From the IMG/VR virus record IMGVR_UViG_3300047160_010653, positions 9,104 to 73,103 of that record: DNA of 64,000 nucleotides. One strand, given 5' to 3'. Positions 46,199 through 62,886 of this stretch are shown piece by piece; within the stretch, counting starts at the first letter, position 1; each line of letters starts with the position of its first letter. The notes under the pieces are model-generated. The model was not told where the DNA came from and searched no databases. It saw only the letters and a program-made list of their open reading frames with translations. This stretch comes from a virus. Taxonomy: Duplodnaviria > Caudoviricetes. The translations under genes and the position numbers were made by a program.

Positions 46199-47737
46199 AT
46201 GGTTCGCAGAATTGCGATATCGTCGGGACATGGCTTGCATATCAGAGGCGCGCGGGGCAATCCGGTGCCGCCACAGTGCGATGAGGTCGACGAGGCCCGC
46301 AAGATCGTTGACAAGGTAGCCTCGTTGTTGAGCTGCCCCAAATTTCATGACAACATTTCATACGATCAGTCGACCAATCTTCACACGATCGTCGCGTGGC
46401 ATGATAAACAGCAGCGTGACCTCGACGTGTCGGTCCACCTGAACGCGACGGCAGGCGCGCACGGCACCGAGGTGCTGTATGTCTCGGACGGAACGAAATC
46501 GCTAGCGAAGGAAGTTTGCGATGCGATTTGCAAAGCCGGTGGCTTTACAAACCGCGGACCGAAGAAGCGCACCGATCTTTATTTCCTGAACAACACCGAC
46601 GAGCCTGCGATCCTGCTCGAAATGTTCTTTTGTGATACCACCAGCGACTGCGACCTCTACCGCAAGAATTTCGAGGCTATATGCTCGGCGATAGCTTCGT
46701 CAATCTCTGGGCAACCTGTCAAAGACGACGCTCCCGGCAAGTGGCCCGAGAACCCACGCGATGTGCCGGTCGAACAACGCTCGACCGTCGCGCGGGGCGA
46801 CTACGGCCAGGATGTCACCGATCTGCAGAAGATGCTGCCGCGGTTCATTGGTGAAATTGACGGCGACTTCGGGTCAGTGACCGAGGCCGAGGTACTCGAC
46901 TATCAGCGTTCGCGCGGGCTCGTCGCCGACGGCGTTGTCGGGCCGAACACGTGGCACGCACTGTACGATCGGAAACCTCCTCTTCCGCCGCCAGCGGCGT
47001 TCACACAGGCGCAGCAAGATGAAATTTGCCGGATCGCGATCAACTCGCACATCGCCGAGTACGCCTGGAAAAACAGAGGACGTGCGCCTGCTGGATACAC
47101 CAAAGGCATGGCGCTCGCGTTCGCTTCCACTTATCGCAAGCTTCAGCATAACCATCCCGCTGCGATCGACATGGCGAAAGCGCGGGTGAACAGCGACAAG
47201 GATGCACTAAACCTCTACAAGTCGAAGTTCGATCAACTGGGAATGAACAATGAGCATTCCGGGCCGGATACTCTACGACACCTCTACGCCCTTATGCTGG
47301 GTCATGGAATGCGCGAAAGTAGCGGACGGCACTGCGAAGGACGAGACCAGAGTGCGAGCAACACTAGCAGCGACACTGCGGAGGCTGGGCTTTTTCAACA
47401 TTCTTGGAATTCGCATTCCGCAAGCGATCCCGAGTTCAGCGATCTCATGACTGAATTTTCGACGGGGCAGAGTCCCAGTTACCTTGACCAATTCGCTGAA
47501 GACGTATCATGCAGCACCAGCGACTGGGCTTGTTATGGTTCAGGAAACGGTTACGAGTTCCAGGACCTCTGCAAGACCGCGCCTGCGTTTGCGGTCGAGA
47601 CTTGCGCGCTTACATTGCGCAATCTCGCGAACCATTACGGTCCGATTATCCGCGGCGAAACCGAGCTGCGTGAAGATAGCGATGAGATGTTCCGCGACGT
47701 ACAGGCGTATGTCGACCGCCTGGAGGGTGAGGTATGA
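46199..47737 (+). CDS. Endolysin: Amidase_3 + peptidoglycan-binding + lysozyme-like domain
   Basis: SSGHG, E, SVHLNA, ILLEMFF amidase residues; DGDFG ... YQRSRGLVADGVVGPNTW PG-binding motif; MRESSG ... AGLFQ lysozyme-like motifs. Confidence 0.9.
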   Translation: MVRRIAISSGHGLHIRGARGNPVPPQCDEVDEARKIVDKVASLLSCPKFHDNISYDQSTNLHTIVAWHDKQQRDLDVSVHLNATAGAHGTEVLYVSDGTKSLAKEVCDAICKAGGFTNRGPKKRTDLYFLNNTDEPAILLEMFFCDTTSDCDLYRKNFEAICSAIASSISGQPVKDDAPGKWPENPRDVPVEQRSTVARGDYGQDVTDLQKMLPRFIGEIDGDFGSVTEAEVLDYQRSRGLVADGVVGPNTWHALYDRKPPLPPPAAFTQAQQDEICRIAINSHIAEYAWKNRGRAPAGYTKGMALAFASTYRKLQHNHPAAIDMAKARVNSDKDALNLYKSKFDQLGMNNEHSGPDTLRHLYALMLGHGMRESSGRHCEGRDQSASNTSSDTAEAGLFQHSWNSHSASDPEFSDLMTEFSTGQSPSYLDQFAEDVSCSTSDWACYGSGNGYEFQDLCKTAPAFAVETCALTLRNLANHYGPIIRGETELREDSDEMFRDVQAYVDRLEGEV

Positions 47738-48028: not shown

Positions 48029-48322
48029 TTGGGGAATACCGTGGTTGGAGTGATGAACATCAAGCGTTGCGGTGGGTGCCACTTCGCCAAGATCATCAAT
48101 CAAGACCTCACGAAACGCCTCTGTCATGGCGCGCCACCGAGCGCTATTCAAATCCCTACGCCCAACGGGCAGATGCGTTTACAGATGGCGCGGCCTGTCG
48201 TGCAGGTCACCGACGAAGCCTGCAGCATGTATCAGGCCAAAACCGGCGCGGATGAAGTGCGCGACAACGAAGCGGTGAAAGCCGCTTACGAGATGGCGCA
48301 GGCACAGGTGATCAAGCAGTGA
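48029..48322 (+). CDS. Small Cys4 protein
   Basis: CGGC ... CHGAPP ... PVV ... EACSMY. Confidence 0.55.
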
Positions 48323-49836
48323 GCATCTTTAACACTTCATCGGTGCTCGACCCCAGCCTGATCCTCCGGCAAGTGCAGGAAGAGTTCAACCGCGTCTGGG
48401 CCGCGATGGGCGTGGGCGGCAGCGGTGGAGCGCAGGGGCCTCAAGGCGAACCCGGACCGCAGGGCACGCAGGGACCGCAGGGACCGGCCGGTGCAGACGG
48501 TGCGGTTGGTCCTGCCGGTCCGCAGGGGCTCCAGGGGCCGCGCGGTGTACCAGGGCCATTGGGACCGTCAACGCCTGGGGTTCAGGGACCGGCAGGACCG
48601 GCAGGGCCACAAGGGCCGCAGGGGGATGCAGGAACTCCCGGGGTTTCTGGCACGGATGGCGCACAAGGTCCAGCAGGGCCGCAGGGCCCGGCCGGGCCGC
48701 AAGGCGATCCCGGGCCCGCGGGCGTGCAGGGCGACCCCGGTCCGCCCGGCAAGACCTGTGCGATTATCGGTTCGTTTTCGAACCGGCAGATTTGGGAGTT
48801 GCCTCCCTCGGGATACATCCCCGCGGATTGGGACAGCCCGGGCAATCCCCCCGCGGGCAATCAGCTCGCCAACGGCCAGGGATTGCTCCACAGCCCGACG
48901 CAAGAGGTGTGCCTGTGGGTTGGCCCGATGTTGACCTCGGGCTGGGTTGTCCTGGGAGAGGTGCAGGGTCCCGCGGGCTCGCCGGGACCTGCCGGACCGG
49001 AAGGTCAGGCGGGGCCGTCGGGCGGCCAGGGACCGCCCGGGCCGCAAGGCGTGCAAGGTAATCCCGGCGCTGTCGGTCCAACGGGCAAGGACGGAGCGCA
49101 GGGACCGGCAGGTGCCGCTGGTCCACAAGGGCCTGCCGGGCCTGCCGGTGCCATTGGACCGCAGGGCGGCCAGGGTGTGCAGGGGCCGATGGGCGCAGTC
49201 GGTCCGCAAGGACCGCAAGGCGTGCCCGGTCCGACTGCGGTGTCGAGCGACCCCTCGAACACCGCGACGCTGGGTAGTGACGGCAAGGTGTTCGTGCCGC
49301 TGGCGCCTGCAGGCGGCAACGCCATCCCTCAGATGGACGGCACCGGAGCGGCTGGGTCTAACACGACATGGTCGCGCTCGGACCACGTCCATCCCACCGA
49401 CATCAGTCGACAGCCTGTGAAAGGCACGATTTCGGCTGACAATGCGGCCGCCGGTAACCTCGGCGAGGTGCTGTCGACGTCGGTCACGACAGCGGTGAAC
49501 TTGACTGCCAACACCGCGGCGAACATAGGCAGTCTGGTTCTGACTGCAGGCGACTGGGATGTTTCGGGCGTCGTCAACTTCGTCTCGCCCGGCGCGGCGG
49601 CGACCCGCATGGCGGCAGGAATTTCATCGGCATCTGCGACGCTGCCGACACCGGCGCAGATCGCAGCGGGGACGGGGACGCTCAACGACCTGTCGCTGGT
49701 TTTCTCGAAGGCGGCGATGACGATGGCGACCGGCATCTGCCGTTTCAATGTTTCCGCATCGACGACGATCTATCTGATTGGTCTGGGACCGGCCACGACT
49801 GCGACGGGATACATATGGGCAAGGCGCGCCCGCTGA
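48319..49836 (+). CDS. Collagen-like fibre protein (probable head/whisker fibre)
   Basis: Two long Gly-X-Y blocks separated by a globular insert; C-terminal beta domain ending YIWARRAR. Confidence 0.85.
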
Positions 49837-50024
49837 CCTACGAACCGATAGAGTTTCCCAGAGATTTGCAGCGTTGCGACAACTGCGCCTGTTTCAAACG
49901 CGATCAGGAAACGCCGGATCGCGGCTGGTGCCGCGCATTTCCGCCGACGGTGCTGGGACCGAACCAGAGCTTCTGGCCATCCGTGTTTGCGATGGACTGG
50001 TGTGCGAGGTGGACAGCTCGATGA
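49815..50024 (+). CDS. Small Cys4 protein, paralogue of 48029-48322
   Basis: CDNC ... CRAFPP ... WPSV ... DWCARW. Confidence 0.6.
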
Positions 50025-51610
50025 GCTACGTCAAGATTAAAGACACCCTCCGCAATCTGATCACAGGCCTGGGGCAGATGGGTATCGACCCTTCTGCGTC
50101 AACGCAGTATGTGCTTTATCTACTGCAGCGCGACCAGCTCGAAAATATGTACCGTGGCGATTGGCTAGCGCGGAAAATCTGCGATGCGCCCGCCGAGGAT
50201 ATGACCCGCGAGTGGCGCGCGTGGCAAGCCAACCAGAACCAGATCGAAGCGATTGAAGCTGTCGAGAAAACGCTCGACATCAAGCGCAAGACCAAGCAGT
50301 GGCTGATCAAGGCGCGGCTGTACGGCGGTTCGGCTTTTGTGGTTGGTGTCGATGACGGGCAGGACCCCAGTCAACCCATCGATCTCGACAAGTGCAAGAA
50401 GGGCTGTCTGAAATACGTCGTGGTGCTGCACCGGTGGGAATTGAACGCCGGGCCGCGCATCTACAATGTAATGGACCCCTATTATACCCGCCCTGCATAC
50501 TATACGGTGGCGACGCCGATGTTTGGTTTCATGGGCGAGAGCGGTGCGACGATGCCGACGCCGTCGGGCACGCCCGAGCCGATCCCTGGCTCGATCAACA
50601 ATTTCATGAGCAAGGTGATTCCGTTTCAGAACCGGCCCGGTAAGCAGCAATCTCAATATCCCAGCACGACGCCAACCAACCTCGGGCTCACGCAGATACA
50701 CCCGTCTCGCGTGCTGGAAATGCCCGGCAATGAATTGCCGGACTGGCGGCTCGCGCCGCTGGGCGGTGGATGGGGCGATAGCATTCTGCAGACCGTTGTC
50801 GATACCATGACCAGTTTCACGCAGGTGACGCAGTCGATCACTGCGATGGTCAATGACGGCAAGATGGATGTGGTCAAAATTCCCAACATGGCCTCGCGGC
50901 TCACCAATGAAGAGTACAAGAACACGCTGCTGTCGCGGTTCGCCATGTCGGCGCAAAGCAAGAGCGTCATTTCCGCGCTCCTGCTCGATCGTGAAGAAGA
51001 GTGGGAGCGGGTATCGACGCAGTATGGCGGTTTGCCCATGATACTGCACGAGTTCATCACCCTGGTTTCCGGTGCGGCCGGGATACCGGTGTCCCGTCTG
51101 TTCGGTCAGGCGACCGGGCGCGGGCTGGCTGGCGGCTCGACCGGCGGCGGCGCGTCGGGAGGGGAATCCGATCTGAGAAACTATTACGACGACTGTGCGC
51201 AGAAACAGAAAAACGAGATGGCGCCGCGCATGGGTATGCTCGATCAGTTATTGATGCGTTCGGCGCTCGGGACTGATGATCCGAATATACATTATGATTG
51301 GAACTCATTATGGCAGATGGACCAGGACGAAAAGTCCAAGATCGCGCTTGCCAAGGCGCAGGCCACGCAGATTTATGTTTCACTTGGCATCGTCAATGAG
51401 GACGCGTTCCGCGAAGGTGTTGTCAACCAGCTGGTGGAGGATGGAACTTATCCTGGTCTCGACGACGCCATCGAGCAGTTCGGGGCCGAGCCTGAAATGC
51501 CTGACGATGATGGCGGCTTCATGCCGGGGCGTGGCACGCAGGGACCGTCGCCGCCGGAGCCTGATCCGGAACCGGAGGACATCGGTCATTCCGGACCAGT
51601 CGGTGGTTAA
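50021..51610 (+). CDS. Portal protein (DUF1073-type)
   Basis: Start refined to MSYVKIKD; YRGDWLARKICDAPAEDMTREW; ARLYGGS; IHPSRVL; GAAGIPVSRLFGQ; DLRNYYD. Confidence 0.9.
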   Translation: MSYVKIKDTLRNLITGLGQMGIDPSASTQYVLYLLQRDQLENMYRGDWLARKICDAPAEDMTREWRAWQANQNQIEAIEAVEKTLDIKRKTKQWLIKARLYGGSAFVVGVDDGQDPSQPIDLDKCKKGCLKYVVVLHRWELNAGPRIYNVMDPYYTRPAYYTVATPMFGFMGESGATMPTPSGTPEPIPGSINNFMSKVIPFQNRPGKQQSQYPSTTPTNLGLTQIHPSRVLEMPGNELPDWRLAPLGGGWGDSILQTVVDTMTSFTQVTQSITAMVNDGKMDVVKIPNMASRLTNEEYKNTLLSRFAMSAQSKSVISALLLDREEEWERVSTQYGGLPMILHEFITLVSGAAGIPVSRLFGQATGRGLAGGSTGGGASGGESDLRNYYDDCAQKQKNEMAPRMGMLDQLLMRSALGTDDPNIHYDWNSLWQMDQDEKSKIALAKAQATQIYVSLGIVNEDAFREGVVNQLVEDGTYPGLDDAIEQFGAEPEMPDDDGGFMPGRGTQGPSPPEPDPEPEDIGHSGPVGG

Positions 51611-51682: not shown

Positions 51683-51955
51683 GTGGAAGAGAGATTGATG
51701 TTCACTGTCATCGGCACACTGTGCGCATTCGTGTTCTCGCATCCCGGTGATATGGCTTTCATCGCCGTCGGATTTTCGATCGAGAACCAGTGCAACGTGT
51801 CGTTGCTGCTGTATCCCGACGGGCCGATCGGGCCATTGGAAATCAGGCCGGGCTCGGGCGAGATGCACACCTTCCGTGCTATCATTGGCCGCCAGCAAGC
51901 CGTGCTTTACGTCGACGGCATGCCGCATCCGATCCCGTTCGGGGTGCCGTTGTGA
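51683..51955 (+). CDS. Hypothetical protein
   Basis: 90 aa; stop overlaps the GTG start of the MuF gene. Confidence 0.45.
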   Translation: MEERLMFTVIGTLCAFVFSHPGDMAFIAVGFSIENQCNVSLLLYPDGPIGPLEIRPGSGEMHTFRAIIGRQQAVLYVDGMPHPIPFGVPL

Positions 51956-54900
51956 GTTTGATGTGCATGTGCGGCCCGCGCACGCGTGTGCGGGATGCGT
52001 ATGACCCCGACGAGCCGCGGGACGAACGTGGGCGTTGGACAACATCGGACGAACCTAAGTTGGAAGGCGGACGTTCGCTCAAGGAAGCCGAGGATCGCGG
52101 CATCTTTGAAGGAAGGTTGGGCGAAAAGAAAGAGGTGTCAGGTGGCGAGCGGCAGTTAGTACTGCTCAAACCGACGGACATTCCCAAGGATTGGCAGACG
52201 ATTGAACATCCTAATGGGAAGCGCCTCTACTTCGATCCGAAGCTTGCTGAAGCTTATGAGCTGATCCCGGGCTACGGCAAAGAGTACGCCAAGCCAAAAG
52301 ACAAAACGATTGGCGACTTCGATGTGAAGCCTGAGCCCGACAAGATTTATCGTGGCATGAGCTTCGAGGAGTACCAACGAGCGCTGGATCAAGGGTACTT
52401 TGCCTCCCGTGGCGACTACAATATCGGCGGCGCACAGGAGGGGCTTACCTACTATTCGACCGATCCGCGGCAAGCACAGAGTTACGCGCATGGGTTTGCG
52501 CCTTGGATGTACAAGGCGACGCCGTCGCGCCCTGCGGTGATCGTCGAGGTGAAAGACCCTGGTGAACATGTCGACGTCCCTGGGATCGGGCAGACTTCGA
52601 CCGAGGTGGGACTTCGCAAACATGTGCCAATCAGCGACATCACGCGTGTCTGGTTTGGCAAGCCGTATATCGTGCAGGAGCATCAAGTCGATATCCATCG
52701 GAATTGGAGCGGTAGTCGCGTCGGCGGTGGCACGAGCTATGATGCGTCGGTGCGATGGGAGCAGCAGCATCTAAAGGATGCTGTGACGATTCACATCGTC
52801 TATGACCGCGCGCGGCGAGACCCGCGCGGGCAGGCGGTGCACTACCTCGAAGCCCGGTTCCGGGCCGAGGCTGACCGGCGCTGGCGGCTACTGGCCCAGA
52901 CCATTCGCGAGGCGCTGATCACCCACGACCTCCTGGGCCTGAAGGGCCTCAGCCGACTGCCGCATGAGAACAAGGTCGAGGGGTGGGGCTCTTGGTTGCG
53001 GGGCGAGGTCACCCAGAAGATTTTGGGGTTCAACGGGTACTGGACTGCCCCCTACGTGGAAAACGCATCCATGGAGGCTCTAAAGGGCGCCTCGGGCGTT
53101 GCATTTGGGCAACAGTCTACCGATGGGGAGGGGCCAGGGCACCCGTTCCGGGGCAACCAGTACACCAGCGGGGAAGGTGGACTTCCAGAAGAGCCGGGAA
53201 CAACGCCGATCCCGGAAGGCCATGTCCGCTTGTATCACCAGACTGGCGCAGAGAACATTGAATCGATCAAGAAGAACGGCTTGACGCTGTCGAGCGCTAA
53301 GGGCATCGAAGGGCCGAAAGCAATTTATGCTGGGGAGACTGGATTTTATCATAAGGTGGGGGAAGAACAGCCGGGACAGATAACAGTCGAGTTTCATGTT
53401 CCCAAGGAACGCTGGAGTCCGCCGTTCGTGCGTGTCGACAGTCAAGGTCGCGTTGCTCCGGAAAACATCATCGCTGTCCACGAAGCTTGGCACGGATCGG
53501 CGCGCTATATTGAAAATGACCCAGAAGTCTTACGGGCCACTCTCGCCGGGGAGAATGATTCACTACTTGATTTGCCACGTGAAGGTCCGGCAATTCGTTA
53601 CATCAAGGCGAAGCACGCGCGTGACGCCGCGCCCGGCCCTGCCGAGCGTCTCGCCAGCATGAAGGCGCTGGCGGTGTCGGAGCTGAAGGGCATCGCTGCG
53701 GCGTTCGAGCAGCAGGCCACCAGGGTGGTAGCCCATCACCTTTCGTGCAGTTCGCCCCCGTACTGCACGGCCAATGCCCTGGTGCCGATCATCACGCAAT
53801 TCCGCAATCGCACCAGGGCGATGGCAGCGTATGTTGTGGCGAAAGCTCACGCCGGGGCGACGTTGGCGGCGCTGCGCAGCCAGGGCGCGACGCACGTCGA
53901 CCTGATCCCCGAGCGGGTCGGCCAATGGGGAAAAGTCGGTGATGGCCGAGGGATTTTCCCCATTAACGATGTCGGACCTCCCGACGAGCCGCGTGATCTC
54001 AGGGGAAGGTGGACGGAAGGTGGCGGAGGTGGGGAGACTCCAGTGAACCGGTTCGTCGAAACCGGGATTGGTTTGATCATCACGCCACCATTGGGGCTAG
54101 GTGACGCGCCGCGCAAGGTCGGGCCGGGAGCGCGTGGCGGGACGTCGGCGCGAACGGTGCGGCGGATCAAGGCGGTGTCGCGCAAGCTGCGCCGAGCATT
54201 GCCGCAGCGTGTCGACGTGCTCACGGCCGGTGATGACGATGTCTGCCCCAAATGCCAGGACATTGCCGATAGCGGGCCGTACACTATCTCTGAGGCGGAG
54301 GGGCTGATCCCAGCCCATAATTACTGCCGCTGTAGCTTTGTAAAGGCCGGATATGCCAAGGATTTTGACCCCAACGAACCCCGAGCCAAGGATTTCAACC
54401 CCTATCATCTGCCGTCAGGTCCTGGCGGCGGACAGTTCACGTCGGGGCCTGGAGGAGAGGGTGCGGGCGCGCCCGAATATGTGCGCGAGCTGGCGAAGCT
54501 CAGCGAGCGCGTGCAGGGGCTCGATCCCCGCGTCCTTGCGGTGGGCGGCGATGACTGGAACAAGGACACCGCGATCAGGCTGGAGCGGCAATACCAGGAC
54601 GCCAAGCCCGAGCTGGACAAGGTTGTCGACAGGCTGGTGGAGGGGGCCGCTGCCGGTACACAGCATCCGTACATCCCCGAAGAGTGGGACATGATGTCTC
54701 CTGAGGATCAAGAGTCGGTCAAGAGCGCGTGGATGGATTCCACCAAAGACGATTTCAATAGCAGCGAAGTGGACAGCTGGATCGAGAACGGCAACCAGCT
54801 CGACGAGAGCAAGGCGAAGACGGCTCAGGATTACGGTGACAAAGAGCTGCCGAATTGGGCCAAGGACGTATTCGACGAGGTGCGCGAAGAGTACCGCATT

Positions 54901-56088
54901 CCGTATACCGATGATCAGCTCTACAAGGCGATCACTTTCAATTACCAACAGGATTACGAAGGCCAGAACGATCCCGAAGTCTACTTCGACAACAAGGAGC
55001 TTCAGGAGCCGAAAGGGTTTGATCCTTCGGCAGAATTGCCGTTGGGGATCGAGCCGATTGATCCGGCGTCGAAGCTGACTCAGGACATGCGCGATGCGCT
55101 GGAGACGGGATTGATCAAAGCGTTCAATAAGGAAGCCAAAGACAATGCTGATCAGATCGATCCGCCGGATTTGAGCGATCAGGTTGCCGAGTTCCAGGAT
55201 CAGATGTGGGATGAAAAAGAGGATAGCGACAAGTTTGACTGGGCCAAGTACAACTGGTCGGAATTTCCCACCGATGAAGGCGGAAGCAAAGAGCCTACGG
55301 TGATAGCACTGCCCCACCGGTGGGACCCGCTGCAGGAAGGCCATTCGGATCAGGATTACCGTCGCACCCAGGCTGTCGGCACGCAGATGTCGCGCGAGCG
55401 CGCGGCCGATTTGATGATGAAACGCGGCGTGTTCGAGGATCGTAGCCAAGCATTGCGGGCAGCGACACGGCTGGATAATTCGATATGGGCGGCATGGAAA
55501 AGCGCGTCGACTTCCAAGGAGGGCTCGCTGCTGCAGTCGGCGACTGCAGCCGAGCTGGGCGGACGTGCGCGAGGCGAATGGAGGCCGACGCAGGACGTGA
55601 TTAACCGCGCTAACGCCACCTATGATCTTTCCGGCGGCTGGGAGGGTCTGAAGGCTTACGTTCGCGCCAAGTGGGAAACCACTCAGTACATGCTCGACAA
55701 GGCCGATAAGCCGATGCTCAACGTGTATCGTGGGATATCAAAGGAAGAGCGCGGTAAGGAGGTTTCTGTCCGTTCGCCGACGGAATTTTCAAAGGAATAC
55801 ATTCAACTCCCGGATATCGAGATGGAGCGTAATGGAGCGCAGTCGACATCAACGGATGCCAGCGTTTCCAATGGTTGGGGAAGCCCTTCGACGCGGGTGG
55901 TGATGCGCATCCAGGCGCCGCGTACTGCAGCGATCTCGGTGCCGTCCTACGGCCAGAACATTCACAGCGAGCATGAGGTCGTGCTTGCGGGCACGGCATG
56001 GAAGAAGTGGGATGCGTGGCACGAGAAAGCGCCTGCATTCAATGCGGTAGAGATGCATGATCAAAATCGACCTCTCCGAGATCGATAA
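51952..56088 (+). CDS. Giant MuF (SPP1 gp7-like) minor head protein with three ART-fold domains
   Basis: MuF core end TAGDDDVCPKC ... PAHNYCRC (about 54205-54345); ART-like modules IYRGMS/YYSTDP/TEV (about 52340-52700), LYHQT/SIKKNGL/IYA (about 53220-53490) and VYRG/STST/EHEVVL (about 55710-56000). Confidence 0.8.
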   Translation: MSLMCMCGPRTRVRDAYDPDEPRDERGRWTTSDEPKLEGGRSLKEAEDRGIFEGRLGEKKEVSGGERQLVLLKPTDIPKDWQTIEHPNGKRLYFDPKLAEAYELIPGYGKEYAKPKDKTIGDFDVKPEPDKIYRGMSFEEYQRALDQGYFASRGDYNIGGAQEGLTYYSTDPRQAQSYAHGFAPWMYKATPSRPAVIVEVKDPGEHVDVPGIGQTSTEVGLRKHVPISDITRVWFGKPYIVQEHQVDIHRNWSGSRVGGGTSYDASVRWEQQHLKDAVTIHIVYDRARRDPRGQAVHYLEARFRAEADRRWRLLAQTIREALITHDLLGLKGLSRLPHENKVEGWGSWLRGEVTQKILGFNGYWTAPYVENASMEALKGASGVAFGQQSTDGEGPGHPFRGNQYTSGEGGLPEEPGTTPIPEGHVRLYHQTGAENIESIKKNGLTLSSAKGIEGPKAIYAGETGFYHKVGEEQPGQITVEFHVPKERWSPPFVRVDSQGRVAPENIIAVHEAWHGSARYIENDPEVLRATLAGENDSLLDLPREGPAIRYIKAKHARDAAPGPAERLASMKALAVSELKGIAAAFEQQATRVVAHHLSCSSPPYCTANALVPIITQFRNRTRAMAAYVVAKAHAGATLAALRSQGATHVDLIPERVGQWGKVGDGRGIFPINDVGPPDEPRDLRGRWTEGGGGGETPVNRFVETGIGLIITPPLGLGDAPRKVGPGARGGTSARTVRRIKAVSRKLRRALPQRVDVLTAGDDDVCPKCQDIADSGPYTISEAEGLIPAHNYCRCSFVKAGYAKDFDPNEPRAKDFNPYHLPSGPGGGQFTSGPGGEGAGAPEYVRELAKLSERVQGLDPRVLAVGGDDWNKDTAIRLERQYQDAKPELDKVVDRLVEGAAAGTQHPYIPEEWDMMSPEDQESVKSAWMDSTKDDFNSSEVDSWIENGNQLDESKAKTAQDYGDKELPNWAKDVFDEVREEYRIPYTDDQLYKAITFNYQQDYEGQNDPEVYFDNKELQEPKGFDPSAELPLGIEPIDPASKLTQDMRDALETGLIKAFNKEAKDNADQIDPPDLSDQVAEFQDQMWDEKEDSDKFDWAKYNWSEFPTDEGGSKEPTVIALPHRWDPLQEGHSDQDYRRTQAVGTQMSRERAADLMMKRGVFEDRSQALRAATRLDNSIWAAWKSASTSKEGSLLQSATAAELGGRARGEWRPTQDVINRANATYDLSGGWEGLKAYVRAKWETTQYMLDKADKPMLNVYRGISKEERGKEVSVRSPTEFSKEYIQLPDIEMERNGAQSTSTDASVSNGWGSPSTRVVMRIQAPRTAAISVPSYGQNIHSEHEVVLAGTAWKKWDAWHEKAPAFNAVEMHDQNRPLRDR

Positions 56089-56800
56089 GGCGGCTGGCAA
56101 GAGCTGGTTTCGCATGGACCCCAGCGCACGCCTGGGCGATATCAGGCGCGATGCGATCCGGCGGCGTTACTGGGAACAGCGGCATGGGGTCAGGGATTTC
56201 AATCCCTACCACAAGCCCAAGGGACCTGAAGGCGGCCAGTTTACGTCGGAGGGCAGGTTCTCGGACGAAGAGCACCTGAAGGCGATCCGGGGCGTGGTCG
56301 GCAAGGACTTCGAGCACGATGAGGACATTCCGAAATTTTCCGGGCTGTCGTTGGGCGAACGTAACACCATCGCGGAATATTCGGACTCGAAGGCGTTCCT
56401 CGGCGTCAACGCGGCACTCCGATCGGGCAAGCCGACGCCGGAGGTGCGGGACTTCGCCGACAAGCTCGACAGCGCGCTTGACCGCATCGAGGATTTTGGG
56501 GCGACGTCGTACCGTGTCGGCAGCAACAAGCCCGAGGTTCTGCAGGCTTACCAGAAGGCGGTCGGGAAGGTTATTCGCGAAGAGAGTTTTATGAGCACGG
56601 CGCGCTCGGGGAGCACCTATCTCGAAAACCGCCGTTTGGTGAATTTTACCATCGAGGGCAAGCATGGTAAGGATATTTCGCGCATCGCCAGAGAACGCGG
56701 AGAGCGTGAGGTGCTGTTCAAGAGCGGTTCGCAGTTCCGGGTGAAGGCCGTCAAGGAAGCGCCTGATGGCAAGTACGATGTGACGCTGGAGGAAGCATGA
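56057..56800 (+). CDS. VIP2/Alt-like mono-ADP-ribosyltransferase
   Basis: Y-S ... VNAALRSG; R (SYRV), S (SFMSTA), ExE (GEREVLF) triad. Confidence 0.85.
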   Translation: MIKIDLSEIDKAAGKSWFRMDPSARLGDIRRDAIRRRYWEQRHGVRDFNPYHKPKGPEGGQFTSEGRFSDEEHLKAIRGVVGKDFEHDEDIPKFSGLSLGERNTIAEYSDSKAFLGVNAALRSGKPTPEVRDFADKLDSALDRIEDFGATSYRVGSNKPEVLQAYQKAVGKVIREESFMSTARSGSTYLENRRLVNFTIEGKHGKDISRIARERGEREVLFKSGSQFRVKAVKEAPDGKYDVTLEEA

Positions 56801-58266
56801 GCGGGGTGCCGGACATTCTGGACGAGACCCCGCCAGGGATGTTGGAGGACGGCACCCTCAACATTGTCGAAGAACTTGACGATTTTGATCCCGATCAGCC
56901 GCGCGATCCGCACGGACGGTGGACCAAGCTCGAAGGCTCGGAGGGTCATGAGAAGTTGATCTCGTCGCGCAACATTACAGCCAAGGGGGTTGGCGAAGAG
57001 GGAAAAGGGGAGCTTGAGAAGGCACGGCGCCAGTACAAGCGCATTGACATTAAGGCGTCTGAAGAGGACTCCGAGCTGCACGCGTTTAACGTCGGCCTGT
57101 TTAAGGACAAGCGGTTTTATCCGGGTATGCAGCCAGCAGAATTGCGCGGCAAATCGACATCAGAGATGGCTGATGCCTTGCGCGATCGCATGGCGGACAA
57201 TCTGGTGTATCTGGCCAGGAAGGTAAAAGAAGGCTACTTCGGTTCGAAAGAAGATTTCGAGAACTGGCGCCACTGGTACGAGGGCGCGCATTCGATTGCC
57301 GATAGTGAAGGCAAGAAGGCGGGCATCGATGTGGCCTCGGCATCTGGCGTGGTCGCTGCGTTGTCGCCGCAGAGTGAATGGTTCGCCAACGTCTACCAAG
57401 CCCGCACTGTCATGGATACGCTGACTAATAAGCGCGACATGAAGTGGGACGATAAGATGACCAAAGTCGGCAATAGGATTTGGTCAAAAGGCGCGATGGT
57501 CGACGAATACCCCGAGATCAAAGGCAAGTCGCTGCGCGAGTTAGAGGGTGATACTCCAGAGGCTCAGCAGCGCATGGCGATGTGGATCAGGACCGAGAAC
57601 GAAGCGCATTCGGACCGACACTTTCCGATGATCAATCCGGATGGTACGTCCGGGGAGATCGCGAAAACTGATAAAGGCAAGCCGAAGATAGCAGCATGGA
57701 AAAACACGACTGTCATCACCAACGCAGTAGCTGCATATCGATCGAAGGGTGATCTGAAGACGCTTTTTGATGCAATGGGCAAGAAGCACAAGGTTCGATC
57801 GTTCTACAACAACATCCTTGACCCCAACTCTGCGAACCACGATGTGACCATTGACACGCATGCGGTCGGCGCCGCGTGGTTGACGCCATCGACACAAAAC
57901 GATGTCTCGGTGGTGCATAACCTGAAATCGACAATGGTCAAGAAAGACCAGCCGGAAGGCTATGTCGGCGCGTCTGGCAGCGCGGTCACCGGCGTGCAGG
58001 GTACTTATCCGATCTACGCCGATGCTTACCGGCAGGCGGCAAAGGCAATGAACGTGCAGCCGCGTGAGTTGCAGTCGATTGTATGGGAAGCCAAGCAGCG
58101 TCTGTTCGGCGATACGCAAACCGGCAAGCGAGTAAAGACGGCAGTCGGCGAGGTCTGGAAAAAGTTCAATCGAGGCAAGCTCACGATCGATGAAGCGCGC
58201 GAGCAAGTATTCACGACCGCGCGCAAGACACTGATGGATATGTTTTGGCAATGGATGAGAGCCTAA
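56797..58266 (+). CDS. Head-associated protein with HhH-GPD glycosylase-like fold (DUF7178-like)
   Basis: WY ... VVAALSPQSEWFAN; KVRSFYNNIL; VTIDTHA; AYRQAAK ... LQSIVWE. Confidence 0.6.
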   Translation: MSGVPDILDETPPGMLEDGTLNIVEELDDFDPDQPRDPHGRWTKLEGSEGHEKLISSRNITAKGVGEEGKGELEKARRQYKRIDIKASEEDSELHAFNVGLFKDKRFYPGMQPAELRGKSTSEMADALRDRMADNLVYLARKVKEGYFGSKEDFENWRHWYEGAHSIADSEGKKAGIDVASASGVVAALSPQSEWFANVYQARTVMDTLTNKRDMKWDDKMTKVGNRIWSKGAMVDEYPEIKGKSLRELEGDTPEAQQRMAMWIRTENEAHSDRHFPMINPDGTSGEIAKTDKGKPKIAAWKNTTVITNAVAAYRSKGDLKTLFDAMGKKHKVRSFYNNILDPNSANHDVTIDTHAVGAAWLTPSTQNDVSVVHNLKSTMVKKDQPEGYVGASGSAVTGVQGTYPIYADAYRQAAKAMNVQPRELQSIVWEAKQRLFGDTQTGKRVKTAVGEVWKKFNRGKLTIDEAREQVFTTARKTLMDMFWQWMRA

Positions 58267-58421
58267 CACCAGGACAGGAGGCAATCCTGTCGATCATGCG
58301 CAAGCATGGCGTGCCGATCACGCGCGCGAATTATATTGCGACCAACTGGCCCGATTACGATCCAGAGACCTGGACAGCCGAAGATGAGGCCGAGTTACCC
58401 GAGTTCTTGCAGCAGAAATAG
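58251..58421 (+). CDS. Small acidic protein (56 aa, below the ORF-track cutoff)
   Basis: MDESLTPGQEAILSIMRKHGVPITRANYIATNWPDYDPETWTAEDEAELPEFLQQK; overlaps the upstream stop. Confidence 0.6.
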   Translation: MDESLTPGQEAILSIMRKHGVPITRANYIATNWPDYDPETWTAEDEAELPEFLQQK

Positions 58422-58530
58422 CCCCGAAGGGCCGCTGATGTTTTAGCCAGCACCCAAGTACTGATTAACCAAACATTTTGAAGCCCACCCAACTCGCTCA
58501 GGTCTCCTGAGCGAGTGATGGAGCACGTCT

Positions 58531-61320
58531 ATGCCATACGGTAGCAAAGACATCCCCAGCGGAACTGAAAAGGTGCCTGCTCACGGACAGGCTATCTACC
58601 GGGCTGCCTTCAATGCCGCCTACAAAAAATACGGTGAGGCCAAGGCTCACGCCATCGCCTGGGCCGCTGTCAAAACCAAGTTCAAAAAGAAGGGCGACAA
58701 GTGGGGAACAAAAGATGGTGATCTCCTGGGGCACCCGTTCAGAGGCAACCAGTACACTTCTGGTCAAGGAGGTGGTGAAGAGAGTGGCGCAGAAGCTCGG
58801 GGTGCGGCTTCCGAAAACTGGCAGCATGGCAACAACCATAACCACCCCGGCGAAGGCTACTCGGCGGAAGCCAAGGTCGACGAACACGGAGTGATTCACA
58901 CCACGAATGTCGACGATGCGGCATTGGCGCTATCAGAGAATCGCAAGGTCGAATTGAACCAGCCGAATGAAGTGTCGACATTGCTTGATCGTTTGGGGGA
59001 TATCTCCAAGGATATGATTGCCAAGGGCGAGAAGGCCCCTGATTTTAATTTGTGCAATGTATCGGTCCACGGAACAAACCTATTCTGTTCGGAGAACCTG
59101 AATATTGAACGTGATTTCATGCCGCAGCTTGCTCCGGATGGGCAGCCGGGCGATGCCGAACATTTCGTCCAATGGATGAAGGACCGAGGCTATAGTGTTT
59201 CGAATGATACCGAATACGCCGCGCATTTGCGTGCGACGCAGAACCAGTTGAACGGCGGCAAGGTCGCCGGTGTCGCCAAGTACATGGAAACTGAAAAAGG
59301 ACGGTCGTTGCAAGACCGTCCAATCGTAGTCTCACGCGACAATTACATTCTCGACGGGCATCATTCCTGGGCCGCTAAAATTGGTTTAGACGCGCGAGAT
59401 AATATTTTAGCGGACGATAAGAAAATGAGTGTCCGCCGGGTCGACACCAACATTGTCAACCTGCTGTACGCCGCCGAGGATTTCACTGGCGGCAAGGGCC
59501 ATAAGTCGGCAAAGGACCGGAAGTGGTGGGATATCTGGTCTGAAGAGGCTCGTGAAGCCTCTGCAGAAGCGCGTCGCCGCAACAAGAAAGAAAAAGAAAA
59601 AGAAAAGCGCGGCAAGGCCAGCGAGTGGGTTGGCGGCTACCGCGTGAAAACCAAGGGCTGGGGCAGTGCGCACACGCACGCCTATGGGCACACCTCGCAG
59701 TGGGGCTCGCACGGAGATGAAGCCATGATCGACAAGGAGTTTTCTGGCGAGCGCCGCAAGGAGCTGGCCAAGAAGGGCGAAGCTATGCCCGGTGGCGGCG
59801 GGTATCCCATCGAGAACAAGGGCGATCTGAAGAATGCCATTCAGGCGTTCGGCCGCGCCAAGAACAAGGGTGCGACCAAAGCCTGGATCAAGAAGCGGGC
59901 TAAGGCGCTAGGAGCGGAGGAAATGCTCCCCGAGAACTGGGATGCGCTACCGTCGATGCTGGAGGCTATCAAGGAAGCCTGGGACGCTGTGGGTGACCGC
60001 GATTGCCCCGACTGTGGTGGCACCGGCAAGGATGACGACGGCGACACCTGTCCGACTTGCGGAGGGGACGGTTATATCGAAGACGCCGATCCGGATGATG
60101 ACGATGACGATGAGGACGAAGACGATTGCCTGAAATGCGGTGATCGCCGCAATTTCAATGATGGCGTTCTCATACTCGACGGCAAACCTCGCAAAACCAA
60201 AGACGGGTATTTAGTCGCCACCGCGCGAATAGCACGCACCGGAATCCAACTCTATCACGGCGAGGAAGTAGGCCGTCCTGACTTGCCGGTGGTGCGGGTT
60301 TATCGGCCGCCTGAAGAGGTGTTTTCCAGGCGCGCGATGCAGAGTTTGGCGCATCGCCCCATTACTTTGGAGCATCCGCCGGAGATGGTGGACGCCAAGA
60401 ACTGGAAAACTTACGCCATTGGCCACATCGGTGAAGACGTAACTCGCGACGGCGATTGCATCCGCGTGCCGATGGTGATGATGGATTCTCGCGCCATCGA
60501 TGCGTTTGACGCGGGGGTGAAAGAGCTGAGCGTAGGTTATTCCACCGATATCAAATGGGAAGACGGCGTCACTCCCGCCGGGGAAAAATACGACGCGATC
60601 CAAACTCGTATCCGAGGAAACCATTTGGCGGTTGTCCCAGCCGCCAGAGGGGGATCGCTGTTGACCATCGGGGACGACAAGAATGGAGGTTTGAATATGT
60701 CTACACGCATTGTCATCGACGGTCAGCCCATCGAGTTTGCGAGCGAGCTGGCCGCTAAGCATGTGCAGGACGCCATTGCCTTGCTATCGAAACAGTTGGC
60801 CGACGCCAAGAAAAAGGCCGGTGAAGAGGCCGAGGAGGAGCAGGAGGAAGAGAAGAAGACCCGCGGCGAGATGGATGCGCTCAAGGGCGAGATCGTCGTT
60901 CTCAAAAAGCAGCTCGAAGACGCGAAGAAAGAGCTGTCAGGCCCCGCCATGGATGCGCGCGTCAAGGAGCGCACTGAAGTGCGCATGAAGGCCGACGCTC
61001 TTATGCAGGGCAAGGTCAACTTCGACGGCAAGGAACCGGCAGAGATCAAGCGTGCGGTCGCCACCGCTCAGCTTGGTGATGTGTCGGCGATGTCGGACGG
61101 CGAAGTCGCCGGTGCGTTCCTCGCGCTCACGCGCGATGTGAAGATCGGCGGCATGAGCGGCCACGGCGTCAGCCGGATGGCCGATGCGCTTTCCGGTCTG
61201 AACTTCGGCGGCGGGTCGTTGGTCGACGCCAAGGCTCTCCGTGATGCCGCGTGGCTTGAGCGTCAGAAGGCCCAGCAGAATGCCTGGAAGGGTCCGCAGC
61301 ACACGCTGGCCAAGCAGTAA
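58531..61320 (+). CDS. Prohead protease/scaffold polyprotein (ChaB + ParB-like + Zn finger + DUF2213)
   Basis: ChaB-like MPY ... AFNAAY ... AWAAVK; IVVSRDNYILDGHHSWAA; CPDCGGTG/CPTCGGDG; DUF2213 DGYLVATARIARTG ... ELSVGY ... NHLAVV ... ARGG; acidic coiled-coil scaffold. Confidence 0.85.
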   Translation: MPYGSKDIPSGTEKVPAHGQAIYRAAFNAAYKKYGEAKAHAIAWAAVKTKFKKKGDKWGTKDGDLLGHPFRGNQYTSGQGGGEESGAEARGAASENWQHGNNHNHPGEGYSAEAKVDEHGVIHTTNVDDAALALSENRKVELNQPNEVSTLLDRLGDISKDMIAKGEKAPDFNLCNVSVHGTNLFCSENLNIERDFMPQLAPDGQPGDAEHFVQWMKDRGYSVSNDTEYAAHLRATQNQLNGGKVAGVAKYMETEKGRSLQDRPIVVSRDNYILDGHHSWAAKIGLDARDNILADDKKMSVRRVDTNIVNLLYAAEDFTGGKGHKSAKDRKWWDIWSEEAREASAEARRRNKKEKEKEKRGKASEWVGGYRVKTKGWGSAHTHAYGHTSQWGSHGDEAMIDKEFSGERRKELAKKGEAMPGGGGYPIENKGDLKNAIQAFGRAKNKGATKAWIKKRAKALGAEEMLPENWDALPSMLEAIKEAWDAVGDRDCPDCGGTGKDDDGDTCPTCGGDGYIEDADPDDDDDDEDEDDCLKCGDRRNFNDGVLILDGKPRKTKDGYLVATARIARTGIQLYHGEEVGRPDLPVVRVYRPPEEVFSRRAMQSLAHRPITLEHPPEMVDAKNWKTYAIGHIGEDVTRDGDCIRVPMVMMDSRAIDAFDAGVKELSVGYSTDIKWEDGVTPAGEKYDAIQTRIRGNHLAVVPAARGGSLLTIGDDKNGGLNMSTRIVIDGQPIEFASELAAKHVQDAIALLSKQLADAKKKAGEEAEEEQEEEKKTRGEMDALKGEIVVLKKQLEDAKKELSGPAMDARVKERTEVRMKADALMQGKVNFDGKEPAEIKRAVATAQLGDVSAMSDGEVAGAFLALTRDVKIGGMSGHGVSRMADALSGLNFGGGSLVDAKALRDAAWLERQKAQQNAWKGPQHTLAKQ

Positions 61321-61378: not shown

Positions 61379-61858
61379 ATGTTGCAACCGGCCCCTGTTC
61401 AAAGCACGTATGTCAGATATCAGCCTATCGCTCAGAACGGCATGCTCGCCGACGAGACCAACTCGGTCACCGACAGCAAGACTGTCGAGACCGCGGCGGG
61501 CATCGGCTTCGGGCTCGCCGTCTCTCAGGGCACCAACGACCGTGGCGTCATCCTCGGTGGCACCGCGTTTGTCGGCATCACTCGTGCCGATCCCACTATC
61601 GGCCGCGCCGATGTGTCTCCTGCGCTCACCCTTGACAGCTATCCGCAAAACGACAACGCGGCTGTGCTGGCGATGGGCGACATCTGGGTAATCCCGGACA
61701 ATGCGGTCACTGCAGGCGAAGCGGTCTACTACTCCACCACGACAGGAAAGCTCGGCCATTCCGGCGGCACGGTCATTGAGGACGCCCGTTGGATGACCGG
61801 CGCTGCCGCAGGCGCGCTCGCTCTGCTTCGGCTCGGCAATATCGCTGGCAACCGGTAA
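61379..61858 (+). CDS. Head decoration (cement) protein
   Basis: RBS AAGGAG; IGFGLAVSQG ... GDIWV ... AGEAVYY; lies between protease and capsid. Confidence 0.75.
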   Translation: MLQPAPVQSTYVRYQPIAQNGMLADETNSVTDSKTVETAAGIGFGLAVSQGTNDRGVILGGTAFVGITRADPTIGRADVSPALTLDSYPQNDNAAVLAMGDIWVIPDNAVTAGEAVYYSTTTGKLGHSGGTVIEDARWMTGAAAGALALLRLGNIAGNR

Positions 61859-61923: not shown

Positions 61924-62886
61924 ATGAGATTCGACATCTATGACAACCCTCAACAGGCGCTTGGTTTTCTGTTGAGCCAAACTTCCTATCTGGAGGCGGA
62001 AGTTTATAGGACGCAATACCCAGAAATTATTTACACGCAGCTGATACCTATTGATTCATCTGCGGGTGAATGGGCGAAGACCGTTACCTATTTCAGTCTG
62101 GATAAGGTCGGTCAGGCGCAATGGGTATCAAACTTCGGTACCGATATTCCGTTTGCTGATATCAATCGGAATAAGTTCGAGCAAGGTATCGAAATGGCGG
62201 GCATTGGGTATACATACTCCCTCGAGGAGTTAGGCCAAGCCATGATGATACCCGGCCTTAATCTCACGGCGGAACGCGCCGAGGCTGCAGTATTTGCGTA
62301 TGAGATGTTCATGGATAATCACGCTTATCGTGGTTCCACCGCAAAGAACATCACGGGTTTGTTTAACTCAATATACCCCACCGTGGTGACCGCGAAAACC
62401 GGCGCCGGAGGTTCGACGCACTGGTCGCTCAAGACCGCCGACGAGATCATCACCGACGTGCAGGACGCGCTTACCGGCGTGTACGAGGGATCGTTGACCG
62501 TCGAGATGGCAGATACCGTGCTGCTGCCGATTGGTGAAATGCAGAAGCTTGCCAACATTCGCATTCCCAACACCTATGGGAACGCGCTGGACTATCTGCA
62601 AAAGTACAACCTTTACACGGCCACGACCGGCGCGCCGCTTACTATCCGCGGAGTTCTCGGTCTGGATACTGCAGGCGCAGACGGCGGCGGCCGGATGATC
62701 GCCTATCGTCGCGATCCGCGCGTGCTGAAAATGCACGTCCCGATGCCGCATCGGTTCTTGCCGGTGTTTCAGCGTTCAGCGATCCAGTTCGACATTCCTG
62801 GCATCTTCCGCGTCGGCTCGGTCGAAATCCGTCGTCCCGGCGCAGTGCGCTATGTCGACGGCGTCAGCGGCGTCGGTTCGCCGTAA
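61924..62886 (+). CDS. Major capsid protein (DUF2184 family)
   Basis: QTSYLEAEVY ... YTQLIPI ... GIGYTYSLEEL ... GLFN ... DTVLLP ... MIAYRRDP ... GSVEIRRPGAVRYVDG. Confidence 0.92.
   Translation: MRFDIYDNPQQALGFLLSQTSYLEAEVYRTQYPEIIYTQLIPIDSSAGEWAKTVTYFSLDKVGQAQWVSNFGTDIPFADINRNKFEQGIEMAGIGYTYSLEELGQAMMIPGLNLTAERAEAAVFAYEMFMDNHAYRGSTAKNITGLFNSIYPTVVTAKTGAGGSTHWSLKTADEIITDVQDALTGVYEGSLTVEMADTVLLPIGEMQKLANIRIPNTYGNALDYLQKYNLYTATTGAPLTIRGVLGLDTAGADGGGRMIAYRRDPRVLKMHVPMPHRFLPVFQRSAIQFDIPGIFRVGSVEIRRPGAVRYVDGVSGVGSP

Follow-up and report, generated by a model that had tools for sequence, protein, structure and literature searches.

The tailed-phage record IMGVR_UViG_3300047160_010653 (Duplodnaviria; Caudoviricetes) is a complete genome of 73,103 bp (IMG/VR class, rated 100%) with a direct terminal repeat of 98 bp at record bases 1-98 and 73006-73103. 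The window, that is, the whole stretch of 64,000 nucleotides analyzed here, corresponds to bases 9104-73103 of the record, and positions below are those of the window. The block studied comprises the head genes of this phage, and the four genes located between its portal and capsid genes hold about eight cargo modules. A short linear motif of one of four kinds, hereafter tags A to D, stands ahead of each module in the block, and a Gly-rich linker, modeled as disordered, comes after each motif. The block is organized as follows.

49778..51610, + strand: portal protein (PF06381 Phage_portal_3, E 4e-86), without a tag
51961..56088, + strand: P0001, giant polyvalent MuF-like head protein (from its translation; the open reading frame (ORF) is open from 51790 and its likely start is ATG 51961)
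56057..56800, + strand: P0002, stand-alone ADP-ribosyltransferase (PF03496, E 2.2e-9)
56797..58266, + strand: P0003, DUF7178 protein (PF23802, E 2.1e-24)
58531..61320, + strand: P0004, protease/scaffold protein with passenger domains (Pfam, AlphaFold2, Foldseek)
about 61380-61858: small gene, ORF only
61924..62886, + strand: major capsid protein (PF09950, E 5.6e-77), without a long propeptide in its translation

The initial annotation of this DNA, made from the letters alone, had listed nine tag copies in P0001-P0004. A regular-expression search of the six-frame translation recovered all nine (A, truncated A, B, C and D) where it had placed them, and the same scan of the whole 73,103-bp genome detected no further copy in any frame outside these four genes.

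52000..52041, + strand: tag A copy 1 (YDPDEPRDERGRWT), heading module 1 of P0001
53122..53172, + strand: tag C copy 1 (DGEGP-GHPFRGNQYTSG), core motif 53137-53172, in P0001; AlphaFold2 predicted local distance difference test (pLDDT) <50
53974..54015, + strand: tag A copy 2 (GPPDEPRDLRGRWT), opening insert 2 of P0001, which has only ~25 residues more
54364..54384, + strand: truncated tag A, FDPNEPR, joined by AKD to tag B
54394..54447, + strand: tag B copy 1 (FNPYHLPSGPGGGQFTSG), in P0001
56198..56248, + strand: tag B copy 2 (FNPYHKPKGPEGGQFTS), P0002 residues 48-64
56884..56925, + strand: tag A copy 3 (FDPDQPRDPHGRWT), P0003 residues 30-43
58714..58764, + strand: tag C copy 2 (DGDLL-GHPFRGNQYTSG), core motif 58729-58764, in P0004; pLDDT ~30
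59536..59580, + strand: tag D (WSEEAREASAEARRR), in P0004, at the start of a predicted helix

The tags of the window sit 30-70 residues from an N-terminus or internally. The two copies of tag C had been described as the same in protein with different codons; indeed, they share 12 of 12 residues (GHPFRGNQYTSG), and 5 of the 13 identical residues are recoded in a 17-residue comparison. The corresponding fractions are 7/10 for tag A (copies 1 and 3) and 7/15 for tag B. Because the copies differ at synonymous sites, selection acts on the peptide and not on the DNA.

P0001 combines the following parts with its tags.

52042..52773, + strand: module 1, with tblastn matches in three cyanophages called RelA/SpoT or 'large polyvalent protein'
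52780..53103, + strand: MuF-like core piece 1 (P0001 331-438), aligning with residues 20-127 of the relative L267
53173..53643, + strand: body of insert 1, ADP-ribosyltransferase-fold-like (pLDDT >90; Foldseek E 0.04, probability 0.89)
53644..53970, + strand: MuF-like core piece 2 (P0001 619-727), aligning with L267 residues 130-238
54100..54363, + strand: MuF-like core piece 3 (P0001 771-858), with a CxxC...HxxCRC signature, aligning with L267 residues 237-324
54514..56085, + strand: C-terminal cargo module of ~520 aa, headed by tag B in P0001

The proposal that modules cut the core into three pieces is confirmed by L267, whose core is uninterrupted and ~85% identical to that of P0001. Since the L267 core is contiguous, the P0001 core is truly split, by two tagged inserts. 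Insert 1 (P0001 439-618, tag C plus its module) is missing from L267 and from L059, and its body shows a weak fold resemblance to KptA/Tpt1 and PARP-like proteins. Insert 2 (P0001 728-770) consists of tag A and ~25 residues; in another relative, L258, the MuF loop at this place is occupied by module 1 with its tag A, and the homology of L258 to P0001 module 1 begins 3-5 residues 5' of the tag. At 54364, the fusion of a broken tag A with tag B was likewise observed as first reported, and L267 has there a full tag A, ~200 residues and tag B. As judged by these alignments, modules are gained, lost and moved with their tags among close relatives, because L267, L258 and P0001 (~85% core identity) hold different tagged modules.

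We refer to P0001 as MuF-like rather than MuF because the Pfam MuF model (PF04233) has no match in P0001 at E 0.01 and none genome-wide at E 10. A weak transitive link exists, as P0001 789-853 matches L212 (E 2e-10), which in turn matches PF04233 positions 56-111 (E 0.0016, 13 bits), and the matches of P0001 to PHROG minor head proteins are weak (E 1e-3). A representative, P0215, is 77% identical to it and 1052 aa long. P0001 is linked to the head genes by its position, with the portal gene (PF06381) on one side and the genes for DUF2213 and the capsid on the other. It has the makeup of a polyvalent protein, with module 1, the ADP-ribosyltransferase-fold-like insert, the 520-aa module and the MuF-like core each having independent homologues elsewhere.

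P0004 is arranged in the order ChaB, tag C, ParB/sulfiredoxin-like domain, tag D, helical/Zn-ribbon region, DUF2213 protease and scaffold-like helices.

60142..60675, + strand: DUF2213 domain with a prohead-protease fold (PF09979, E 3.9e-51)

The designation of DUF2213 as a protease agrees with its fold, which matches that of T4 gp21 (Foldseek, 5jbl, E 1.4e-4, probability 1.0; template modeling score 0.54 on the target; domain pLDDT ~95). Its candidate catalytic residues, His615, Ser667 and His698, are invariant in 92 homologues, and the domain ends with a nearly invariant I-G-D-D followed by a disordered stretch. DUF2213 is uncharacterized in Pfam, and several homologues also have precomputed PF04586 (S78) matches. 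The passenger domain at 58834-59490 resembles the ParB-N/sulfiredoxin fold (5k5d, probability 0.99; 1xw3, 0.93), carries a DGHH motif and recalls the DdrB-like ParB domains of polyvalent proteins. In the AlphaFold2 models of P0004 and of P0001 331-900, the confident domains are ChaB, the ParB/sulfiredoxin-like domain, DUF2213 and the ADP-ribosyltransferase-like insert. Tags A, B and C lie between confident domains as disordered segments (pLDDT 30-50) and tag D begins a predicted helix.

Different tags occupy the same place in related proteins. At the ChaB/ParB-like junction of DUF2213 proteins, tag C is found in P0004 and P0140, and tag A in P0124, P0125, P0126, P0131 and P0180. The 520-aa module of P0001 is headed by tag B in this phage and in L267 and by tag A in six other phage contigs, the tag always being 18-30 residues 5' of the module. 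Among DUF7178 homologues, about 12 of 120 have tag A before the domain and one has tag B, most being untagged. Because A, B and C swap at these three orthologous junctions, the tag types behave as equivalents, and the four tags may be regarded as variants of one functional class of 'module-head' tag.

The spread of the tags was measured with degenerate DNA patterns over IMG/VR, and the context and ORF figures given below refer to the matches listed. At least 119 IMG/VR stretches contain the tag C pattern, at least 120 the tag A pattern and 36 the tag B pattern (~32 with the full motif). The recurrence is far beyond chance, since positions left free by the patterns are also conserved: F/Y in 151 of 157 tag C matches and F/Y/W at residue -1 in 123 of 123 tag A contexts. 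The consensus is [IVL]-x-K-G-D-x-x-GHPF-[RH]-GNQY-x-x-G-x-G-G for tag C (114 unique contexts), [FYW][DN]P[DN][EQ]PRD-x-x-G-[RKQ]-W-[TS]-x-GGGG for tag A, FNPYHxPxG...G[QRK]F[TS] for tag B and W-[ST]-[DE]-[AE]-AREA-[AS]-A-x-AR for tag D. Tags A, B and C have a common skeleton of an aromatic residue or His with Pro, a basic residue, G-x-aromatic-T/S and a Gly run. Tag D, present once in the window, recurs in 12 of the 92 DUF2213 homologues. The largest apparently untagged neighbor family comprises 87 ORFs in 46 of 273 viral loci, and its example L035:7568-8713:+ opens with a tag C variant, KGDVPGHDFHGNQW (GHDFHGNQW), that the strict pattern missed. In view of this example, the motif family is broader than the patterns and the tag counts are lower bounds.

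Some contigs carry tags in series. In the IMG/VR contig L106, tag D (K-x-W-S-D-AAREAAAAAR) is repeated at least 17 times, at intervals of 100-250 residues, over three adjacent ORFs of 298, 925 and 1915 aa that also contain one tag C, as in a giant polyprotein punctuated nearly only by tag D. Eight copies of tag C are distributed over four ORFs of one 69-kb IMG/VR contig, with three copies each in adjacent ORFs of 1957 and 793 aa (L029) and one in each of two further ORFs (L003).

Tags lie near the start of a protein or before a long C-terminal stretch, and this position indicates that a tag belongs to the module 3' of it. In the viral sets, a stretch of 100 residues or more comes after ~90% of the tags, and C-terminal tags number only 2-4 in each set (about 2-7%). 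Between 28 and 40% of the tags in the A and C sets, and 6 of 28 in the B set, are within 60 codons of the upstream stop, and 13 proteins in other contigs start M-x(0-5)-tag.

The tagged viral proteins include head proteins and putative cargo. Pfam families tallied over 106, 98 and 28 tagged viral ORFs include MuF (8 ORFs in the tag C set and 11 in the tag A set), three portal families, four prohead-protease families (S78, S78_2, Mu-like_Pro and DUF2213) and varied effectors. Cargo domains include ADP-ribosyltransferases, Zeta toxin, Acb1, NUDIX, nucleases, topoisomerase IB, InPase and pentapeptide repeats, and small stand-alone proteins are tagged besides the fusions to portal, MuF and protease. 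The order of carrier, tag and effector is illustrated by a protein with Portal_Mu at 105-449, tag A at 536 and an ADP-ribosyltransferase at 557-713. Portal, large terminase, protease and capsid are the top families among 132 sampled neighbors in viral loci. A tblastn search of phage collections with a 31-residue tag C query returned one match, the 'internal head protein' of Xanthomonas phage Rb1; the same query found no match in plasmid collections, for which queries this short are too insensitive to be conclusive.

Domains of anti-CBASS Acb1 (directed against the cyclic oligonucleotide-based antiphage signaling system), 2'-5' RNA ligase-like, topoisomerase IB and PI3/PI4-kinase-like types occur in tagged viral ORFs. 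Their presence suggests that anti-defense enzymes may be delivered from the virion.

What we observed directly are the motifs, how widely they occur, where they lie, how they replace one another and which proteins they accompany, and together these observations point to proteins that are probably carried inside the capsid. We favor the interpretation that the tags are a shared handle through which internal cargo is recognized by some component of the head during its assembly, and we assign it a probability of about 0.5. According to this model, a head component would bind the tag, and internal cargo would thereby be loaded or held. The handle might in addition allow the cargo to be detached, ahead of ejection, from the portal, MuF or protease that carries it, and modules would travel between phages with their tags, whose types would be interchangeable. 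Packaging, a binding partner and any cleavage are what we infer here. The modular capsid-cargo system of the initial annotation thus stands insofar as the tags are real, widespread and modular and are found at the heads of effectors; the cutting after Asp by DUF2213 that formed part of it is unsupported, as detailed below. The feature itself is real and well defined, and the modular cargo reading is supported by comparison, its mechanism being unproven.

Several observations weigh against a packaging handle. In the AlphaFold2 models of P0004 and P0001 331-900, neither the MuF-like core nor the protease has a tag docked on it in cis. All-against-all BLAST of 2318 ORFs from the 273 viral loci detected no gene family that accompanies the tags universally, so that a dedicated receptor is not evident. 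Furthermore, several tag types coexist in one phage and are swapped between close relatives with the same head genes, which makes a lock-and-key partner awkward. Many homologues of tagged cargo domains, including giant polyvalent proteins, have no tag; the three giant tagless homologues are polyvalent proteins without conjugation markers, and no contrast between phage-type and conjugative-type proteins can be drawn from them. Tag A also heads chromosomal polymorphic toxins of Alphaproteobacteria, with phage genes accounting for 0 of the 131 neighbor ORFs within ~4 kb of 29 such loci.

A bolder version, which we advance only as a tentative possibility, holds that A-D form an interchangeable address code with which any protein could be loaded into the capsids of tailed phages, and perhaps into gene-transfer-agent particles too. 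If true, phages with unrelated families of portal and protease would all be able to use the code, and a tag of ~20 residues would suffice to make an injected cargo. Its use in gene-transfer-agent particles could account for the alphaproteobacterial chromosomal toxins with tag A.

The most serious competitor, although we consider it doubtful, is that the tags serve the effector and not the capsid, by mediating its release or activation, entry into the target cell or binding of a host factor, comparably to the VENN and DPxGL motifs. It draws its strength from tags outside head clusters. The tag A pattern occurs in at least 120 stretches of bacterial genomes, and residue -1 is aromatic in 124 of 128 matches; an alphaproteobacterial bias among the matches listed may stem from the extent of the listing and was not used as evidence. 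The tagged genomic ORFs include portals, with lambda-type and P23-45-type families in addition to those of the viral sets, MuF proteins and toxins (CDI_toxin_EC869-like, 8; Tox-REase-5, 4; RNase A-like, 3), and M23 peptidases also carry tag A. One chromosomal family of Alphaproteobacteria (L305, L337, L371, L380, L392 and ~20 more loci, with housekeeping genes around) consists of a conserved N-domain of ~110 aa, tag A, a Pro/Ala-rich linker, a middle domain and, at its toxin end, a CDI_toxin_EC869-like nuclease or an M23 peptidase. Since no phage genes are near these chromosomal toxins, an effector-intrinsic role, or loading in trans, can be entertained.

A second genomic arrangement, L332:1-6200 (Hyphomicrobiales metagenome-assembled genome contig JAXDNY010000261.1), holds four cassettes, each with a coiled-coil leader of ~75 aa, tag A and a differing C-terminus. 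Small conserved genes of 126-130 aa, possibly immunity genes, lie between the cassettes, and beside the array are, as judged by eye, an NlpC/P60-like gene and a gene resembling gene-transfer-agent host-specificity proteins.

The likeness of this array to a toxin/immunity array, and the lack of correspondence between tag type and head-gene family, also favor a role in the effector. Viral tags, however, are located on portal, MuF and protease fusions amid head genes, and many tagged modules are not toxins, such as those at ChaB/ParB junctions, DUF7178, NUDIX and pentapeptide repeats. Particles of phages or gene-transfer agents could, through loading in trans, also carry the chromosomal toxins themselves. 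The initial annotation had reasoned that tags equally frequent outside head clusters would speak against packaging; the chromosomal tag A toxins go part of the way toward this.

We also evaluated the proposal that the tags are cleavage sites, with the DUF2213 protease cutting after the preceding Asp and at D-A module ends to free a cocktail of effectors, and we find it unlikely. T4-type prohead proteases cut after an acidic residue, and DUF2213 shares the gp21 fold. Each tag had been said to follow directly on an Asp. This holds for tag C in the form of a conserved G-[D/E], the acidic residue being two positions 5' of the tag (D in 89 and E in 12 of 114 contexts), but not generally for tag A, for which Asp at -2 or -3 is about at background (25 of 127 viral and 10 of 122 genomic copies), even though members of the lineage of this phage commonly have an Asp 1-2 residues ahead of the aromatic residue. 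At least two of the three D-A module ends named, LGLGD-A and KHARD-A, align to uninterrupted MuF-like cores (...ISD-APRK...) and are thus core residues. Cuts at both ends of the inserts would, moreover, break the MuF-like core into three pieces. Tags are found alongside four protease families, and those at the very N-terminus, some at residue 2-6, need no cutting. The scaffold region of P0004, an expected protease substrate, carries no tag, and the 14-25 conserved residues far exceed known prohead-protease sites. The I-G-D-D that closes the DUF2213 domain before a disordered stretch is in keeping with cleavage, and some processing near the tags is still plausible because portal-fused effectors would presumably have to be freed to leave the capsid.

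It is improbable, to a slightly greater degree, that the tags are passive joints, i.e. linker punctuation that tolerates insertion and survives shuffling with no binding partner. The tags do lie in Gly-rich regions modeled as disordered and at recombination joints (the broken tag A fused to tag B and the module flux among relatives), and no partner family was found in the neighborhoods compared. Mere punctuation would nevertheless be hard to reconcile with 8-10 residues that are near-invariant across hundreds of unrelated proteins despite synonymous change, or with the strict N-terminal polarity of tags relative to modules. Chemical self-cleavage of tags A and B at [DN]-Pro, like that at FlhB/YscU N/PTH or vWD GD/PH sites, is very unlikely: F-[DN]-P opens both tags and FNPYH recalls NPTH, but tag C and HPRD variants lack [DN]-P, the D/N is fixed by the search pattern so that its conservation is no evidence, and known autocleaving motifs lie in folded domains.

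The tags differ from the short signals of known systems to which a packaging handle can be compared. To our knowledge, loading signals for injected phage proteins are known only for T4 and a few other models. The T4 capsid-targeting sequence, which is borne by the internal proteins of that phage, is a strictly N-terminal leader of ~10 residues that is cut at (L/I)xE by the gp21 prohead protease. By analogy, a short common peptide heads unrelated proteins here too, and a gp21-fold protease is present in the cluster. In contrast to the T4 leader, the tags span 14-25 residues, are mostly internal and exist as four types over differing head-gene families. Encapsulin cargo-loading peptides are usually C-terminal, with their own consensus and a solved binding site on an HK97-fold shell; they may be likened to the tags as short conserved peptides on flexible Gly-rich linkers with diverse cargo, whereas the tags are N-terminal to their modules and have a differing consensus. 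VENN (in CdiA) and DPxGL (in Rhs) are short motifs at the border of a constant carrier and a variable toxin. The tags are similarly found at carrier/toxin borders and recur in cassette arrays such as L332, but they have other sequences and phage head carriers, and several can be present in one protein. The string 'DxxGR[WF]' may resemble the YD-repeat core, and RHS_repeat matches in the Pfam tallies were 0.

Polyvalent proteins and MuF toxins with predicted head packaging are already known, and it is the junction motifs that are undescribed in the searched text of the papers below. Polyvalent proteins, as presented in the searched text of Iyer, Burroughs, Anand, de Souza and Aravind 2017 (PMC5512222), join unrelated effectors in one giant polypeptide encoded next to head genes, with MuF as a hub and predicted head packaging and injection. 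Their repertoire overlaps with the one observed here (ART-PolyVal, ParB, InPase and LPD domains, PBECR nucleases). Processing by a zincin-like metallopeptidase is proposed there, whereas no such domain was found in the present cluster, and that text holds no description of inter-module tags. MuF polymorphic toxins (Zhang et al. 2012, PMC3482391; Jamet et al. 2017, PMC5576092) are described as MuF-type head proteins with variable C-terminal toxins and predicted head packaging, and a junction motif is not mentioned in the searched text of either paper. P0001 differs from these accounts in that its modules are also N-terminal and inserted in two core loops and that the Pfam MuF model does not match it; the same tags are also found on portals, proteases and stand-alone proteins. 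An immunity gene was not identified in the window, no candidate for one having been examined. Literature searches by motif string and by protein-family topic returned no description of the tags.

Whatever their mechanism, the four motifs are practical for delimiting modules in proteins that are mostly without Pfam annotation. Injected phage proteins disarm or poison the host. If the tags are indeed short portable cargo signals, injected cargo such as anti-defense enzymes and toxins would be predictable from sequence in uncultured phages. The building and reshuffling of giant polyvalent proteins would also be accounted for, and the tags would offer an engineering handle to load chosen proteins into capsids.

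Two genes 5' of the portal gene have an unusual location. They are an endolysin gene (Amidase_3 and PG_binding_1) at 46199-47737 and a collagen-repeat tail-fiber-like gene at 48319-49836, which together lie directly 5' of the portal gene.

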